A stretch of DNA of 27,535 bases, from IMG/VR virus record IMGVR_UViG_3300033067_001330, positions 1-27,535 of that record. The stretch is one strand, 5' to 3'. Below are positions 2,278-25,518 of this stretch, piece by piece (positions within the stretch are counted from its first letter, which is position 1; every line of letters starts with the position of its first letter). A model generated the notes under the pieces. It did not search any database. It was not told the origin of the DNA and saw nothing but the letters and a program-made list of their open reading frames with translations. Source of the stretch: a virus. Its lineage: Duplodnaviria > Caudoviricetes. Both the position numbers and the translations under genes were made by a program.

Positions 2278-2743
2278 GCCGAGCTGGCTGCGCGAGTTCG
2301 TCCGCGAGAGCAATCGCATCGAGGGCATCCTTCGCGAACCGTTGCATGAGGAAATTGCCGCTACTGATCACATCATCCATTTGCCGGTGATGACGGTCGA
2401 TGACCTGAGCGCGTTCGTGGCCGTCTGCGCACCAGGCCACCGCCTGCGCGACAAGCCGAACCTCAACGTACGCGTCGGCAACCATATAGCGCCGCGCGGC
2501 GGGCCGGCAATCCGGAAGGCTCTGGAAGACCTGCTGGCGAACGCCGAGACCATCGGAGCATATCGCCTCCACGTCGAGTACGAGATGCTTCATCCCTTCA
2601 CGGACGGCAACGGTCGGTCAGGCCGCGCTTTGTGGATGTGGTGGAAGCAATGCCATGCGCCCACCTATGAACGTCGGCAAGCCGAGCGCCTGCTGTTCTT
2701 ACATACGTTCTATTACGAGACGCTTTCGGCAGAGCGGGAATGA
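2270..2743 (+). CDS. Fic domain protein (class II, minimal, 157 aa)
   Basis: Canonical HPFTDGNGRSGR Fic motif; N-terminal SNRIEG matches the (S/T)xxxE(G/N) inhibitory helix; AGGAG RBS. Confidence 0.9.
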   Translation: MAEPSWLREFVRESNRIEGILREPLHEEIAATDHIIHLPVMTVDDLSAFVAVCAPGHRLRDKPNLNVRVGNHIAPRGGPAIRKALEDLLANAETIGAYRLHVEYEMLHPFTDGNGRSGRALWMWWKQCHAPTYERRQAERLLFLHTFYYETLSAERE

Positions 2744-2913
2744 CCAGGCCACTAGCCCTCCCCGAGCGTCAAGTGACGGCCCTGTGTCGCGGAGCCGCGA
2801 AAGCCGGCCATGTTGCCGAAGTCAAGATTGGCAACATGGTTATCCGCCTTGTCCCCAAGACAGATGCACAGCCCGAGCGGCCAATTGAATCGGAAGAGGA
2901 TATCCGGCTGTGA
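2740..2913 (+). CDS. Small protein upstream of integrase, possible excisionase/recombination directionality factor (57 aa, absent from ORF track)
   Basis: MTRPLALPERQVTALCRGAAKAGHVAEVKIGNMVIRLVP...EEDIRL; ATGA overlap with the Fic stop; ends 8 bp before the integrase ATG. Confidence 0.6.
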   Translation: MTRPLALPERQVTALCRGAAKAGHVAEVKIGNMVIRLVPKTDAQPERPIESEEDIRL

Positions 2914-2921
2914 CCGAAGGC

Positions 2922-3401
2922 ATGCCGAGAAAGCTGCCTCTGTTTGTCGTCCGCGAACGCTCGCGCCACGGGCGGGTCATGTTCTTCTTTCGTCGTGGCA
3001 AGGGCAAACGAACGAGATTGCCTGATGAGTATCCGTCAGCCGAGTTCGACACGGCATACCAAGCCGCGCTGGCCGGGAAACCCAAAGTCGTCCGCGCCGC
3101 CTCCCCGTCCGACAGGCTGGAATGGCTGGTTGCCCGATTCCGGGAAAGCGGCAAATGGGCAGGCGTTTCCCCTGCCACGCGGAGGCAGCGCGAATTACTC
3201 TACCGCACGGCAATGGCTAACGGGAATCCTCGCTTCGCCGACATCGAAAAGCGGCACATGCAAAAGGCCGTAGACGAGCGAGCGGCCACCCCGGCGCTCG
3301 CAAAGAACTTCCTGAAGCCATTGAGGAATTTCGTGCGCGCCCCGCACCTTTCATCTCCCGTTCCCCTTGGTGGAGGGGTAGGCTGTGATTCGCGGCGATG
3401 A
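2922..3401 (+). pseudogene. int: Truncated tyrosine integrase (N-terminal arm-binding and part of core-binding domain only)
   Basis: MPRKLPLFVVRERSRHGRVMFFFRRGKGKRTRLP..SAEF..AYQAALAG and SPATRRQR..ATPALAKNFLK resemble the N-terminus of rhizobial phage integrases. No R...HxxR...Y catalytic domain follows, and similarity ends near 3330. Confidence 0.8.
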
Positions 3402-3426
3402 TGCTATCTCCGTTCAGAGCACGCCA

Positions 3427-3549
3427 ATGACCCGCCAAGAACAAGTCACCCTCACCGCAGGAGCCGCGATCATCGTCGCGGTTGCTGTCCTGGGCGGACA
3501 TGAAGATGTGGTGCGTTCCGAACCGCTCTATGAGCATGTCGAGAGATAG
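3427..3549 (+). pseudogene. Probable 5' fragment of a small membrane or secreted protein
   Basis: MTRQEQVTLTAGAAIIVAVAVLGG hydrophobic start, then runs into the antisense of the neighbouring remnant near 3497. Confidence 0.35.
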
Positions 3550-4913: not shown

Positions 4914-5429
4914 TCAGACCGCTGCCATTTTCAGCGCGGCAGCGCGCACCGACTTGACGCGAGATGCCCAGCCCTTGCCGAAGACCGGCCAGGTGCTCAG
5001 CCCGTGCAAAAAGGCCAGCCGCTTGTCGCAGAGGGCATTGATGACCTGTTGCCGAGGGAGCGCCCGCGCGGCCTTGAGCGTGGCAGGGCCGATCTTGCCG
5101 TCTTGGACCGCGCCGACGATTGTCTGCAGGAAGCGAGCCGCGCGCCCAACTCCGCTGTTCACGGCAAGGTCGAAGACGGCGTAATCGATGCCGTCCGGCA
5201 GTTCAGCGCCGACAACAGCATCCCAATACTGCCGGCGATAGACGACGCCCGCCTGATCGTCGGTGAGTGCCTTCAGGTCCTTTATCGTGCCGGCTGGCTT
5301 CACGTAGCGGCGAAAGGTCGCCAGCGTGACGCCCTTGTTGGTGGCCCCGCCGGGGTCTTTCGGGTTGTTGACGTAGCCGCCCTCAAATCTAAGTACAAGT
5401 TCCAAACTGCGTTTGAAGTTTCGGTCCAT
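4914..5429 (-). CDS. Endolysin, glycoside hydrolase family 108 (DUF847) with peptidoglycan-binding domain
   Basis: MDRNF...EGGYVNNPKDPGGATNKGVT, YRRQYWD, FDLAVNSG, DGKIGPATL, FGKGWASRV; GGAG RBS upstream of ATG 5429. Confidence 0.93.
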   Translation of the reverse strand: MDRNFKRSLELVLRFEGGYVNNPKDPGGATNKGVTLATFRRYVKPAGTIKDLKALTDDQAGVVYRRQYWDAVVGAELPDGIDYAVFDLAVNSGVGRAARFLQTIVGAVQDGKIGPATLKAARALPRQQVINALCDKRLAFLHGLSTWPVFGKGWASRVKSVRAAALKMAAV

Positions 5430-6006
5430 CTCTAGTAACTCCAGTGTTCTGGTACGAGGCAAGGAGCCGGTTATGATTATTGAGACTTGGGGTGCAGTAC
5501 CCGACGTGACTGGATACGAGGTATCCGATCAAGGGCGTGTCAGAACACGAGACCGCCGTGTTCCTTACAAAGACGGCCGTGTAGCCCTATTTAGAGGGCG
5601 TGAATTGTCGCTAATTCGCGGAGCGAACGGGTACATTGCTATAGTTCTACCGCAAGGACGGCGCGCTTTGGTTCATCGCCTCGTGGCAGGAGTGTTTTTG
5701 CCGAAGCCGGAAGGCTGCAACTTCATCAACCACAAGAACGGCGACAAACGAGATAATCGGGCAGAAAACTTGGAATGGGTGACAATGGCCCGGAACAACC
5801 GCCATGCGCGTGAGACTGGTCTCAACCGGCAGCATGGCGAGAATTGCAATCTGACCAACTACGGTGCGCAGCTTGTTGCCGCGTTGAAGCGTGTTCACGA
5901 GCGTTTTCAGTGCTCGAACCGCGAGCTGGCCCTTCTATTCGATATGTCCGAAATGCAAGTCGGCGACATCCTGAAAGGACGGACCCGCGCCCAAGGGTAA
6001 CAATCA
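5383..6006. mobile_element. 624-bp homing-endonuclease insertion carrying a recoded replacement 5' end of the endolysin
   Basis: AT-richer block bounded by the duplicated endolysin N-terminus: original copy at 6053-6007, replacement at 5429-5383; junction in Glu codon 16. Confidence 0.8.
5473..6000 (+). CDS. NUMOD4-HNH homing endonuclease
   Basis: ETWGAVP..GYEVSDQGRVR (NUMOD4), VHRLVAGVF, INHKNGDKRDNRAENLEW (HNH) and a C-terminal HTH; AAGGAG RBS; antisense to the late operon. Confidence 0.92.
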   Translation: MIIETWGAVPDVTGYEVSDQGRVRTRDRRVPYKDGRVALFRGRELSLIRGANGYIAIVLPQGRRALVHRLVAGVFLPKPEGCNFINHKNGDKRDNRAENLEWVTMARNNRHARETGLNRQHGENCNLTNYGAQLVAALKRVHERFQCSNRELALLFDMSEMQVGDILKGRTRAQG

Positions 6007-21732: not shown

Positions 21733-23045
21733 CAGCTCATCCAGCCAAGAGGCCCGTGGGACATCGCGTCTTCCTCTTCCGGCTTTTCCTGCTTGGGCAT
21801 CTCGTAGGCCACGCACATGAGGCCAAAGGCGTCAGCGCCGTGGCTTGACCAGTCGTGTTCAGGGCCGAGGCCCATCTTGCGCACCGGGTCTTTCTTCTCG
21901 TGATACCAGCCGAGCGCCTTGCGGCCGCCTTCGGTGGTCTCCGCATTGAAGTGGACCGACGGGAAAAGCCGGCGCGCTGCCTCTATGCGCATCTTGGCCG
22001 CGCCCTTGCCCTGGTTCGGGATCACCAGCGTTTCAAATCCCGCGTCGTCCAACGCGCTTTCGTAGGAGACGTCGAAGACGCGATCGTGTGTCTCGCCATC
22101 GTGCGGAAGAATGCAAAGCGCTTTGCCGTAGCCCTTCTCACGAAGCCAGTTGACGTGCGTGGCAAGCGGCTGGCCGACCGCCTCGTAGTAGTCCAGCACG
22201 CGAATGTGAGCGCCGACGAACTGGCATATCCAGATCGCGCAGGCATCGGCCTTGGCTCCGGTGCCGCCGATGTCCCACACAGCGCGCAGGGTCATCAGCG
22301 GATCGCGCGCGACGTGCCCTATGCGGTTTTGTGCCTTTGCCTCTGCCAGTCCCGTGGCGAAGTAGGCACCATCGACAACCGTCACGTAACCGCCTTCCCA
22401 GATGTGGTCGTACTGATCGGGCTGGAGACGAAGGCAGTCGTCGCGCTCTTGCTTGAGAACCGCCGGGAGCCACGGATTGTCCCGCCAATTGGCCTCGACC
22501 ACCACAGCGCCGGTTGGCATTGCCGTGCCACTCAACAGCAGGTCGACTGGGTCATTGTCGAAGCGGCGGTTCCACGAGAACCAGAGTTCAGAGCCGTCCT
22601 CGCGAATGGTCGGGCGAAGCAGGTTGAGCGAGTGCTGCGTTGCAGTCTGCGCTTCTTCCCACCAGGCCCGCTTGAACTTCTCCAGCGACTTGACCGACTC
22701 TGCGGTGTAGTCCTGCATGCCCTTGAAGATGATCACGCCGTCCTTTGGCGTCTCGATCACATCGCGGAAGACCTTGAAGCCGTCCGCCTCGCCCAAGCGG
22801 TATGAGGCCAGCTTGTCCTCGATCAGCAGCTTGGCCGATTGCGTGAGGTCTTTCTGCACCTCACGAATGCAGACCGAGCGAAGCCCCTCGCCAGTCAGTC
22901 CCGGCTCGGCAAGGCTGTCCTCGACGAGGAGGCCGGCGAAGAAATGCGACTTGCCCGACCCGCGCCCGCCTCTTGCGCCTTTATACCGAGCTGGCTTCAG
23001 GAGCGGTTGGAATACCCGCGCCGTTGGGATTTGCAGGATCGACAA
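21732..23045 (-). CDS. terL: Terminase large subunit
   Basis: Walker A GGRGSGKS, WWEEAQ Walker B, nuclease WDIG and HDWSSHGADAF. Confidence 0.96.
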   Translation of the reverse strand: MSILQIPTARVFQPLLKPARYKGARGGRGSGKSHFFAGLLVEDSLAEPGLTGEGLRSVCIREVQKDLTQSAKLLIEDKLASYRLGEADGFKVFRDVIETPKDGVIIFKGMQDYTAESVKSLEKFKRAWWEEAQTATQHSLNLLRPTIREDGSELWFSWNRRFDNDPVDLLLSGTAMPTGAVVVEANWRDNPWLPAVLKQERDDCLRLQPDQYDHIWEGGYVTVVDGAYFATGLAEAKAQNRIGHVARDPLMTLRAVWDIGGTGAKADACAIWICQFVGAHIRVLDYYEAVGQPLATHVNWLREKGYGKALCILPHDGETHDRVFDVSYESALDDAGFETLVIPNQGKGAAKMRIEAARRLFPSVHFNAETTEGGRKALGWYHEKKDPVRKMGLGPEHDWSSHGADAFGLMCVAYEMPKQEKPEEEDAMSHGPLGWMS

Positions 23046-23502
23046 TCACTCGCTCGATACGTTCGACGCGATGCGTCTGCTCAATCGGCCCGCCGTCTGG
23101 TCCGCTCAATTCCTGGCTCAGCTTCTCGCCGTAGACCTTGGGGCGCAATTTGCCGGCCATCCATTTGCGAGCATCGATGCGAAGGCGCGAGCGCTGGATA
23201 TTCTCGCCATTGGCGATCCAACCCGCATCATCTTCGCCACGGCGCTCCATCCAGTCGTTGCGGGCGTTGTCGGCGATGTCGAGCACATCGTCGAAAAGTG
23301 CATCGGCCTGCGCTTCTCTGGCTCGCGTGTATTGGTCGCGAAATCCTTCGTGGATGGCCAGCCAGCGGAACACCGTCGATTTGTTCGGCATCCCATCTTC
23401 AGCGCAGATCGCGCGAAGGCTCTCACCATCCGCCAACCGTTCGCAGATAACATCTGCGATCTGTTCGGTGAAATCGCTTGGCCGGCCGCTGTGGTCAGCC
23501 AT
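22981..23502 (-). CDS. terS: Terminase small subunit
   Basis: GRPSDFT...ICERLADGESLRAIC...STVFRWL...RLRIDARKW.AGKL.PKVYG; overlaps terL by 65 bp. Confidence 0.92.
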   Translation of the reverse strand: MADHSGRPSDFTEQIADVICERLADGESLRAICAEDGMPNKSTVFRWLAIHEGFRDQYTRAREAQADALFDDVLDIADNARNDWMERRGEDDAGWIANGENIQRSRLRIDARKWMAGKLRPKVYGEKLSQELSGPDGGPIEQTHRVERIERVIVDPANPNGAGIPTAPEASSV

Positions 23503-23601
23503 CCGCTTTTCTCTCGGCAATGTTATGGATTGGGCGCGGCGCGGTGAAATCCGCCGCCAGGAGGCCGGGGCTTCCCCAGACGCCTCAAATCACCTGAGCT
23601 G

Positions 23602-23630
23602 GATATATTCCTAGGAATTTGTTCTGTCAA
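23602..23630 (-). promoter_or_regulatory. Sigma70-type late promoter upstream of terS with palindromic operator
   Basis: Minus strand TTGACA-N17-TATATC; the perfect palindrome ATTCCTAGGAAT (23607-23618) lies in the spacer/-10 edge. Confidence 0.75.
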
Positions 23631-23659
23631 TGCGCCTGCATTCCAGTCGAGGCGGTAGG

Positions 23660-23692
23660 TTGACAAAGCGCGAATATCAATTATGTTGATAT
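23660..23692 (+). promoter_or_regulatory. Sigma70-type moron promoter with inverted-repeat operator
   Basis: TTGACA (23660-65)-N16-TATGTT (23682-87); ATATCAA-N5-TTGATAT (23674-23692) straddles the -10. Confidence 0.75.
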
Positions 23693-23738
23693 CTAGCAGC
23701 CAGCACAGGGCCGACTGACCTCCAAGGGGAGAAGACCA

Positions 23739-23966
23739 ATGACGAACATTGACTACGTCACCACCCACGCTGCAGCCGTCCTCTGCCTGTCCAAAATGGA
23801 CAATGACGAGCGCTACGGCGAATTTGGTGCGGCGCTGGACCTCCACGCCGCGAATTACCGCGATGTCATCAACGGCCGCATGACCGATGAGGGAGAAAAC
23901 GACCATTTCTTCCGCCAAACCGAGCGTTTCTTTCGCTGTCACGGCCTTCTGGTGGAGCGCTCATGA
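23739..23966 (+). CDS. Small acidic hypothetical protein (anti-CRISPR/anti-defence candidate)
   Basis: 75 aa, 13 D/E versus 8 K/R, GGGGAG RBS, first gene behind a strong promoter and coupled (ATGA) to an HTH gene. Confidence 0.75.
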   Translation: MTNIDYVTTHAAAVLCLSKMDNDERYGEFGAALDLHAANYRDVINGRMTDEGENDHFFRQTERFFRCHGLLVERS

Positions 23967-24565
23967 GCGCCGCCGATTGCGGGCGTCTCCTGGCGCTAAT
24001 CACGCGTCTTGGCCTCTCCCACAGAGAGGCCGCAGTCGTTTGCGGCCTTGGCCACGAAACCCTCTCGCGCAAGCTGGCCGGCAAGGATCGCTACGAAGTG
24101 CGCGAGGAGGAAATTGCTGCGCTCCAAGCGCTTAGCGACATGGTCGACGCAAGCGTGGAGGCCTCCATAAAGGCGATGCAGAAGCAGATGAAGACCGCGC
24201 CGGCCCCGCTCGATGAGGTTGATTCGATGGTCCCGATCCGCATGGTCCTCTACAGGTCGGACAAAGACCTGCCGGCCAGCGCGGCCGGATATCGCTTCGC
24301 CAGCGTTCACCGGATGGCGGTCTCCCGCATCCTGGCCGACCCGTGGATCAAAAAACATTCGACGGGGGTGCCGTTCGACCGCGAAAGCTACGAGACGTTT
24401 CTTGCGGGCCGCCGCGACACGTCCGCTGCTCGCGCCGAATGGGCTGCATTGCAGCCGCTCTCGCGGTTCGGCCTGAAGCTCGCCACCGGCAGTATCGGAT
24501 GGGCTGTCCTCAAGGAAACCCCGGCGAAGACGGCCAAGGTCAAGCGCGGAGTGAGCAATTTTTGA
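23963..24565 (+). CDS. HTH protein resembling Aca2/DUF1870 (YdiL) family with C-terminal extension
   Basis: LGLSHREAAVVCGLGHETLSRKLAG (XRE-like HTH), a long helix, then MVLYRSDKDL...SVHRMAVSRI, similar in layout to DUF1870. Confidence 0.65.
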   Translation: MSAADCGRLLALITRLGLSHREAAVVCGLGHETLSRKLAGKDRYEVREEEIAALQALSDMVDASVEASIKAMQKQMKTAPAPLDEVDSMVPIRMVLYRSDKDLPASAAGYRFASVHRMAVSRILADPWIKKHSTGVPFDRESYETFLAGRRDTSAARAEWAALQPLSRFGLKLATGSIGWAVLKETPAKTAKVKRGVSNF

Positions 24566-24641
24566 GCAGCAACCATCGACCATCGACATGATTTGAGACC
24601 TAGCGGTAGCGACAGCCAGGCCGCTTACCTGATCATCCTCG

Positions 24642-24791
24642 ATGCTGGCTCGCCGCGTAGTCGTTGGCGGCCAGGAGGCGCTGCGCATCACCAGCGCCGG
24701 CACCTATAGCGGCCTGCTCGCCGGCCGGCCGACACCGTACGAGTCATCGCTTCGGCGGCTGATGACCCTGATCGACTCATGCCGCCGCTAG
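24642..24791 (+). CDS. Possible small ORF or remnant (49 aa)
   Basis: MLARRVVVGGQEALRITSAGTYSGLLAG... with GC3-rich codons fills the gap; no clear RBS. Confidence 0.25.
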   Translation: MLARRVVVGGQEALRITSAGTYSGLLAGRPTPYESSLRRLMTLIDSCRR

Positions 24792-25310
24792 ATGCTTGTC
24801 CAGAGGCACGCTGATGGTGCCCGCGATGTCGAGCTGATCCACGATTTTCTGGAGTTCCGGCTGGCTCTTGGCGAGCTTGCGCAGGTGTTGACGGGCTTTC
24901 TTACTTTCCGCCAAGAATTCGATTTCCGTCGTCCGCTCCGCGTCGAACAGCTTGAGCACGTCGAGGAAGTCGATTGCCAGTGGCTTATCGAAGGAGCCGA
25001 CGACGCCCGCCACGCCGGGCATGTCTATCAGTTTCGGCCAATGCGGATCGCGGACGAAGACATACCCTACGATGAGCGCAAAGCGACGCTGCTTCCACAA
25101 GTAGGGCTTCAGCCGATCGCGCATCAGCCGCTTTTCGACCGGCATGTAATAGGTGATACCGGCGTCTGTCAGGACACGCTCGATGGCGCTCATATTCGGG
25201 TTGAGGCTGGGGACGATGCGGTAGCCCTTGCGGCTGCGCGTCTTCTCGACCGCGTATTCGCGTTGAGGGAGCTGCGCGCCGGGCTCGGTGCGGATTGCGT
25301 ACCACGTCAT
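24777..25310 (-). CDS. NusG-like (NGN domain) transcription antiterminator, phage late regulator
   Basis: MTWYAIRTEPG...IERVLTDAGITYYMP...ALIVGYVFV...PGVAGVVG; in the Q-equivalent position before the late genes. Confidence 0.82.
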   Translation of the reverse strand: MTWYAIRTEPGAQLPQREYAVEKTRSRKGYRIVPSLNPNMSAIERVLTDAGITYYMPVEKRLMRDRLKPYLWKQRRFALIVGYVFVRDPHWPKLIDMPGVAGVVGSFDKPLAIDFLDVLKLFDAERTTEIEFLAESKKARQHLRKLAKSQPELQKIVDQLDIAGTISVPLDKHLAAA

Positions 25311-25314
25311 TAGG

Positions 25315-25518
25315 TCACCTGTGAGAAGGGCTCTCTTGGTCGGCGAGTTCTTCGGCCTCCATGCGAATGACGCGCTGGCCCAATTCGCCACCACGCTCCT
25401 TTGCAATCTGCCGAACCGTGTGTTGGATTGCTGAGTGCTTCATGAACGCATTGAACGCAAAGCTTTCGATCATCGCGACCGTCAACATTTCCAGCTCACG
25501 CAAGGGGTCGTGCTTCAT
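25315..25518 (-). CDS. Hypothetical protein (67 aa)
   Basis: AGGTG RBS-like sequence, fills the operon gap. Confidence 0.55.
   Translation of the reverse strand: MKHDPLRELEMLTVAMIESFAFNAFMKHSAIQHTVRQIAKERGGELGQRVIRMEAEELADQESPSHR

Follow-up and report, generated by a model that had tools for sequence, protein, structure and literature searches.

Between the gene of a NusG-like antiterminator and that of the terminase small subunit (terS), the phage DNA analysed here carries two genes, encoding a small orphan protein of 75 aa (ORF75) and a helix-turn-helix (HTH) regulator of 200 aa (ORF200) which very probably represses its own synthesis. Our leading, though tentative, interpretation is that of an autorepressed, inserted cassette of the acr-aca design with a cargo most likely devoted to counter-defence. 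An autorepressed cassette with exchangeable cargo is supported because a relative of the regulator keeps the operator core with different upstream genes and because two related phages are devoid of the cassette. Exchange of the cargo is observed for two loci. ORF75 is quite possibly an anti-defence factor of some kind and is unlikely to be an anti-CRISPR in particular.

The window, that is the whole stretch of 27,535 nucleotides, is linear and, as a virus record, about 66% complete; its gene matches include a portal, a scaffold, a major head protein, an endolysin and an integrase-like protein. The best annotated matches of its terminase are found in EBPR podovirus 2 (66.6%), Sulfitobacter phage phiGT1 (65.3%) and a Bradyrhizobium phage (59.7%). 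On account of the integrase-like and structural gene matches and of these terminase relatives, the window probably belongs to a temperate phage of an alphaproteobacterium. The labelled runs containing the stretch are freshwater and wastewater metagenomes. The 163-aa integrase-like ORF (2910-3401, + strand; phrog_1, E 7.5e-6) is short and might be fragmentary. Next to the endolysin gene lies an HNH endonuclease gene in antisense (5413-6000, + strand).

The features of the cassette and its surroundings are collected in Table 1. An earlier reading, made from the letters alone and hereafter called the sequence-only reading, had described an antisense two-gene cassette between antiterminator and terS, and this organization was confirmed: ORF75 and ORF200 occupy the + strand, the NusG-like gene and terS the - strand. 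The HTH gene overlaps the 75-aa ORF, the stop of the latter and the start of the former forming an ATGA at 23963-23966. The promoter TTGACA-N16-TATGTT and the repeat ATATCAA-N5-TTGATAT over its -10 were likewise found in place. The promoter is the only sigma-70-like site in 22500-25500, a region in which shuffled sequences yield 0.7 +/- 0.8, and its match, taken alone, is within chance. The arms of the repeat (23674-23680 and 23686-23692) are perfect, and it is one of 22 pairs of at least 7 nt in 1.7 kb; taken alone, it is within chance as well. A scan of the cassette region found no terminator-like site. The operon layout of the acr-aca kind, with one or more small genes followed by an HTH gene behind a strong predicted promoter, is present both in the window and at the second locus (L085/L086) described below.

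Table 1. Positions of the cassette, its predicted control elements and the flanking genes in the window.
Feature	Position	Strand	Remarks
Terminase small subunit (terS), left flank	22981..23520	-	Pfam Sf6_terminase, E 1.3e-46
Conserved late-leader element	within 23563-23630; CAGGTGATTTG ... GGGGAA.CCCCGGC part 23563..23596	-	Common to cassette-less phages
Divergent probable late promoter to terS; left border of the probable insertion	23602..23630	-	TTGACA 23625-23630, 17 nt, TATATC 23602-23607; read by eye
Cassette promoter, sigma-70-type	23660..23687	+	-35 TTGACA 23660-23665, 16 nt, -10 TATGTT 23682-23687
Predicted operator, inverted repeat ATATCAA-N5-TTGATAT over the -10	23674..23692	.	Core TATCA-N7-TGATA 23675-23691
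Predicted 5' leader, two weak hairpins	23694..23738	+	Second hairpin 23720-23731 pairs the Shine-Dalgarno sequence
ORF75, orphan cargo protein, 75 aa, predicted three-helix bundle	23739..23966	+	
ORF200, HTH regulator, Aca2/YdiL/SO3848 two-domain fold with C-terminal extension	23963..24565	+	Predicted model
NusG-like antiterminator, right flank	24777..25310	-	Pfam NusG, E 2.2e-5; phrog_25909, E 1.3e-42

The direct family matches of ORF200 consist of a weak one to HTH_31 (E 0.027) and one to phrog_2328 (E 3.7e-4), and a PDB sequence search returned nothing useful. A profile search gathered 95 proteins at E<=0.001, 15 of which at E<=1e-30. An AlphaFold2 model built from 21 sequences (pLDDT 85) was compared by Foldseek with Aca2/DUF1870, as the sequence-only reading had suggested. 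Both domains match, with SO3848 ranking first (E 1.6e-6, TM 0.63/0.76) above Aca2 (E 3.8e-3 to 5.1e-2), and the aligned regions cover residues 3-165 for SO3848 and 5-136 for Aca2. VIA scored the model at Z 16.5 over 153 aa (rmsd 2.7) against SO3848, at Z 10.4-10.9 over 112-116 aa against Aca2 (7B5J: Z 10.9, 112 aa, rmsd 2.5) and at Z 9.8 against YdiL, other HTH proteins reaching at most 8.3 on about 60 residues. The Atlas structure search returned DUF4447 (TM 0.68/0.80) and Aca2_YdiL (0.64/0.80). The model displays the architecture of the superfamily, namely an N-terminal HTH, a long backbone helix and a small alpha/beta C-terminal dimerisation domain, to which about 35 C-terminal residues, modeled with low confidence, are added relative to SO3848. 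ORF200 is predicted with good confidence to adopt the Aca2/YdiL/SO3848 fold.

The position of ORF200 within this superfamily was evaluated with family profiles and a tree. Among the 66 of 96 homologues included in a Pfam scan (best 5 families each), at least 12 pass the cut-off of PF08965 (Aca2_YdiL) and at least 14 that of PF14590 (DUF4447); the Aca2 of phage ZF40 reaches 46.6 bits against a profile built from 77 of the homologues (140-225 aa). ORF200 itself has no match to Pfam Aca2_YdiL (gathering score 23.8) at E<=1 and none to DUF4447; of its 21 nearest relatives, none matches Aca2_YdiL at E<=0.01 or DUF4447 among the best 5 families of each. Direct profile comparison of the near clade alone with Aca2 was not significant (hhalign probability 5%). 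A quick tree with 78 rows groups the near clade into a single branch (26 rows, SH-aLRT 99) and places Aca2 outside it, on a branch that is long and unsure. The recognition helix reads TLSRKLAGK in ORF200 versus ARSWQYWESGR in ZF40 Aca2. Residues R30, Q33, Y34 and R39 of Aca2, which matter in repression according to the available text of PMC8633003, align with E32, S35, R36 and K41 of ORF200, where the serine and the arginine are kept in 18 of the 21 near relatives. Since ORF200 is nearest to SO3848, is without a Pfam Aca2_YdiL match and differs in its recognition helix, it represents a separate clade on the SO3848/DUF4447 side and not Aca2 proper. The Aca2/DUF1870-like HTH protein announced by the sequence-only reading therefore stands as to its two-domain fold and falls as to Aca2 membership, in view of the greater nearness of SO3848/DUF4447, the missing PF08965 match and the different residues at the repression positions. 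Five homologues (P0026-P0029 and P0069), of about 530 aa except for one of 345 aa, contain two or three Aca2/DUF4447-like units in tandem.

Two known systems provide close points of comparison. SO3848 of Shewanella oneidensis (PDB 2OX6, matching Pfam DUF4447, PF14590) is the best structural match to the ORF200 model, at 15-16% sequence identity, and resembles it by a longer C-terminal domain with extra helices (PMC8434428, available text). In the same text, SO3848 and YdiL are the only full structural matches of Aca2, both being chromosomal proteins of no known function located outside prophages; ORF200, in contrast to SO3848, resides in a phage cassette. The acrIF8-aca2 operon of the Pectobacterium phage ZF40 (PF08965, Aca2_YdiL/DUF1870; PDB 7B5J and 7VJO-Q) has the two-domain regulator fold in common with the ORF200 model, the same succession of a promoter with inverted repeat, a small gene and a repressor gene, and the same antisense position just before the late genes. 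It differs by the size of Aca2 (116 aa versus 200 aa for ORF200, at 12-20% identity) and by an unrelated operator sequence, and ORF75 is unrelated to its AcrIF8 (shuffle p 0.56).

The evidence for the operator originates from a second locus. A metagenome scan confirmed regulators of the clade at 3 of 313 pattern matches (L084, L085 and L086). L084 is almost the same phage as the window, with a single, synonymous difference in 906 cassette bases, and L085 and L086 encode one and the same protein (P0018, 36% identical to ORF200, from the other main branch of the clade), so that a single independent relative locus is available. The L084 record differs more elsewhere, with 43 of 524 bases changed in the NusG-like gene and, upstream of that gene (2484-3482), a sequence unlike that of the window, with two small ORFs on the + strand and an ORF resembling a transposase (ISL3-like by eye). 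P0018 carries the recognition helix TLSRKLAGK, identical to that of ORF200, and its promoter consists of TTGACA followed by TATCA-N7-TGATA, the core of the window repeat. Even when one mismatch is tolerated, the 27.5-kb window contains this core a single time (0.13 expected); it is found once in 579,031 bases of control loci and behind none of 143 control TTGACA sites. It was defined post hoc, after the pair had been seen, and is present at 2 of 2 independent loci, two loci being all there are. Its recurrence behind TTGACA at a 36%-identical homologue places the repeat above chance. Since an identical helix accompanies identical half-sites and spacing, and ZF40 combines a different helix with a different repeat, conservation provides good evidence that the repeat at 23674-23692 is the predicted operator of ORF200; the operator proposed by the sequence-only reading thus behaves as expected at the level of sequence conservation.

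Elsewhere, the searches were negative. The promoter-operator pattern gave 52 matches in viral contigs, nearly all in AT-rich loci and with no clade member nearby, and these were discarded as chance or as sites of other regulators. No locus of the regulator clade was confirmed in viral contigs (three alignments) or genome contigs (two), and none was found in annotated phages and plasmids, where the one match obtained was HTH-only and to a distant homologue. The operator core is missing from the records of the two cassette-less phages, L082 and L083.

The genes preceding the regulator at the second locus differ from those of the window. Upstream of P0018 at L085 lie two genes, one for a protein of 84-98 aa (phrog_8389, function not known, E 3e-6) and one for an acidic orphan of 101 aa (pI 4.4) which overlaps the regulator gene by ATGA as in the window. 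Neither resembles ORF75 or matches known Acr or defence families. The sequence-only reading had proposed to look beside homologues of the regulator for variable small upstream genes, which are seen here, or for known acr genes, to which none of the three cargo proteins of the two loci has a match in Pfam, NCBIfam or PHROGs. The first L085 protein is 47% identical over 60 residues to the product of a gene preceding a different HTH gene in L031, and cargo therefore appears to move between regulators. This phrog_8389 protein (motif IVRET.KA ... DVWFP.SQIE) thus comes first ahead of different HTH regulators in two phages (L031 248-1020, - strand; L085 143-439, + strand), which makes it a recurring cargo and a second anti-defence candidate.

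ORF75 looks like a real gene because it is preceded by a Shine-Dalgarno sequence and because its GC3 of 0.73 exceeds a GC of 0.58. The small acidic ORF of the sequence-only reading is thus present, its acidity being just mild (pI 5.15; 13 D+E versus 8 K+R). The protein is hydrophilic (GRAVY -0.53), and a single-sequence model of low confidence (pLDDT 66; 0.84 for the Atlas model) predicts a three-helix bundle. That reading had been unable to assign a family, and the searches agree. Homologues of near length were limited to ORF75 itself, none was found among longer proteins, viral contigs or plasmids, Pfam, NCBIfam and PHROGs returned no family, the Atlas gave no usable match, and fold searches retrieved generic helical bundles only (best Z 6.6). 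A phage match at E=4 was ignored, and a resemblance to the L031 cargo (script score, shuffle p 0.0015, one of four comparisons) was not reproduced by BLASTP. In the absence of a homologue, family or informative fold match, nothing ties ORF75 to defence. Its designation as a candidate anti-CRISPR lost ground further, as the searches showed no known acr gene next to clade members or at the insertion site and as a known acr is found upstream of 35 of 1,223 DUF1870 proteins only (PMC9410906, available text). The latter figure understates the odds for a phage operon because it counts known acr genes alone and includes chromosomal copies.

The cassette is most simply regarded as an insertion of about 1.1 kb (23631-24776), judging from sequence comparison with L082 and L083. 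In these two phages, whose NusG-like proteins are 64-65% identical to that of the window, the site is devoid of cassette; the NusG-like stop overlaps a -35-like hexamer and is followed directly by the late promoter and by the leader element that precedes terS in the window. The element (CAGGTGATTTG ... GGGGAA.CCCCGGC ... TTCACCGC) is also located at about 1880-1960 of L082 and 4550-4630 of L083, where a further 300-400 nt of non-coding leader are conserved. It is conserved in all three phages sharing this NusG-like antiterminator, and the remaining terS loci did not show it. By analogy with RfaH and ops, a NusG paralogue with its loading site, the element may be the loading site of the phage NusG paralogue.

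The site itself is not specific to this cassette. The survey covered 80 terS loci, of which 63 have at least 1.5 kb upstream and 56 were retained after removal of near-copies. The 84 antisense ORFs found upstream of terS in these 56 relatives include HicA and HicB at one locus (L046), BrnA at two (L037 and L077), HTH genes at six (five by Pfam or PHROGs, L030 by a profile built for the present analysis) and DUF2158 at three (L020, L048 and L081), and no anti-defence family. The space between antiterminator gene and terS is a general accessory-gene site, toxin-antitoxin modules included. Other antisense cassettes of a small gene and an HTH gene occur before terS in L025 (1651-2442, -), L030 (2936-3481, -), L036 (2885-3286, -), L048 and L081, with inverted repeats in the promoters of the first two.

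This diversity favors the main alternative to a counter-defence cargo, in which the same autorepressed cassette would carry a moron gene serving some other end, for example superinfection exclusion, a prophage-encoded defence directed at rival phages or modulation of the host in the lysogen; it is possible, but doubtful. The many unrelated antisense accessory genes held by the same site in relatives, with HTH genes at 6 of 56 loci and DUF2158 at 3, are in keeping with it, as is the persistence in contigs of two studies of an almost unchanged ORF75 after ORF200 has been cut, which would suit a gene tolerated when switched on. ORF75, being hydrophilic, differs from membrane-bound exclusion proteins. 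A tight autorepression by a repressor of this fold, a hairpin at the ribosome site and a pulse design would moreover fit a factor acting at entry better than one needed throughout lysogeny, if Aca2 biology is a guide. From the literature, most Aca2-fold proteins are without a known acr neighbour (PMC9410906, available text) and less than half of 450 genes regulated by Aca1 or Aca2 have an assigned function (PMC13551039, available text), both of which suit a cargo of another kind. In favor of counter-defence, Aca-regulated operons carry acr as well as other candidate anti-defence genes, and more than 420 acr genes are counted among nearly 1,900 Aca-regulated genes, many of which are unannotated (same text of PMC13551039).

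The contigs in question were drawn from six runs of mixed samples, and parts without contig cover were not counted as evidence. Most of the cassette is covered, in pieces, in run X7. In a contig of DNA run X6, positions 23633-23981 are inverted, leaving the promoter, leader and ORF75 intact and cutting ORF200 after codon 7; RNA run X17, which belongs to that study too, has an identical junction. Two runs from another study, X8 and X13, have ORF200 broken off after codon 24 and continue in a common foreign sequence; X8 retains ORF75 in full, preceded by different upstream sequence, and in X13 foreign sequence adjoins the late promoter. The variant sites fall at 23633-23985, 24034, 24756 and 24793-24804 (runs X6, X8, X12, X13 and X17). 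The inversion has 4 bp of microhomology, some variants have an alternative sequence in place of the cassette promoter and most of ORF200, and the foreign sequence left of 24756 is common to four runs. Near its end, the NusG-like gene in X6/X17 carries an insertion, apparently with 12 bp duplicated, which suggests a decaying prophage.

ORF75 therefore persists in these contigs without an adjoining intact repressor gene, an observation which bears on a type II toxin-antitoxin pair, with ORF75 as toxin and ORF200 as an MqsA/HigA-like antitoxin and repressor. Modules with HTH antitoxins (MqsRA, HigBA) and the HicAB/BrnTA morons resemble the window by a coupled two-gene operon, with the small gene first and a repeat over the promoter. 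The toxin-first order with a coupled HTH gene, the presence of HicAB or BrnA at the same site in 3 of 56 relatives, the weak matches of ORF200 homologues to MqsA_antitoxin and Xre-like-HTH, and NatRT at Foldseek ranks 10-11 (E 0.11) with the ORF200 model all point in this direction. MqsA and HigA, though, align with the HTH part of the model only (58-64 aa, Z about 7), no toxin family or fold matched ORF75, and the partner is not fixed, the upstream genes being wholly different at L085; the invariant pair that would have spoken for such a module is not seen. The loss of ORF200 after codon 7 (X6/X17) or 24 (X8/X13) with ORF75 retained argues against a lethal toxin, weakly so given the mixed samples, an intact ORF200 piece also present in X6, and prophage decay. 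A toxin-antitoxin pair is accordingly improbable.

Least probable is a phage regulator with targets elsewhere, for instance at the divergent late promoter, and ORF75 as incidental passenger or antirepressor: the two -35 boxes stand back to back, 29 bp apart, Aca proteins are able to control neighbouring operons, and SO3848 and YdiL are found without acr genes (PMC8434428, available text), but the operator core occurs only once in the window (in a record about 66% complete), the palindrome of the late promoter differs from it in sequence, and the cassette-less relatives keep the late leader. This palindrome, ATTCCTAGGAAT, is a perfect one of 12 bp at 23607-23618 in the spacer of the probable late promoter, and is a possible site for another regulator. 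The late promoter is not part of the sigma-70 scan list, its -10 being devoid of the last T.

A second level of control could reside in the leader RNA, by analogy with Aca2, which binds two small hairpins and blocks translation (PMC13551039, available text). The 45 bases before the ORF75 ATG are predicted to fold into two such hairpins, the last base of the second lying 10 nt ahead of the final base of the start codon. An identical arrangement and spacing are predicted for the ZF40 acrIF8 leader, folded from 6 nt past TATAAT up to the second ATG within the annotated gene. The predicted stability of the window leader does not exceed that of shuffles (z 0.18), and a second hairpin arises at any Shine-Dalgarno sequence preceded by CUCC. 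The leaders of the window and of L086 have 24 of 48 positions in common; without the last 16 nt, their likeness is modest, 10 of 1,606 background leaders scoring as high (shuffle p 0.015). The consensus of these two sequences contains 7 pairs, 2 of them compensatory. Rfam returned no match for the leader. A scan with the shared leader motif gave 28 matches, none with a clade member and most in the coding sequence of one phage family, and was dismissed as chance. Control of the leader RNA by ORF200 in the manner of Aca2 is possible, with more doubt than confidence.

Under the preferred reading of an autorepressed counter-defence cassette, the following course of events can be proposed. Upon phage entry or prophage induction, the repressor would be absent and the near-consensus promoter would fire. 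ORF75 would be made first and ORF200 next, presumably coupled in translation through the ATGA overlap. As a dimer of the Aca2 and SO3848 kind, ORF200 would place its TLSRKLAGK helices on the TATCA and TGATA half-sites and occlude the -10 region, so that the cargo would be delivered as an early pulse. It may in addition hold the ribosome site shut by binding the two-hairpin leader, as Aca2 does, and ORF75 would most likely act against a host defence. In its boldest form, in which the clade would be a new Aca family of the SO3848 type repressing both DNA (TATCA-N7-TGATA) and a two-hairpin leader RNA through a helix unrelated to that of Aca2, with ORF75 as a new helical anti-CRISPR or anti-defence protein, the proposal is unlikely. 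The cassette is like an acr-aca operon in design, and the clade can be called aca only with a validated acr or anti-defence cargo tied to it.

Aca genes are the main handle on new anti-CRISPR and anti-defence proteins. As the Pfam models of Aca2 and DUF4447 both miss the present clade, pipelines relying on those models would skip it. The available literature on SO3848/DUF4447 yielded no functional test for the SO3848-type branch, and no alphaproteobacterial guilt-by-association work was found in the literature searched; published tables of Aca2 homologues and motifs could hold clade members. The clade brings a precise predicted operator, and its orphan cargo, carried by a phage that probably infects alphaproteobacteria, is exchangeable. 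If autorepression alone holds true, the cassette would be one more accessory cassette of known design. If the activity of the cargo is true as well, the larger SO3848-type branch would gain a role and three new cargo candidates would become available. Should the clade prove to be a new Aca family, its approximately 26 members would mark fresh counter-defence genes and the SO3848/DUF4447 proteins would receive their first function.
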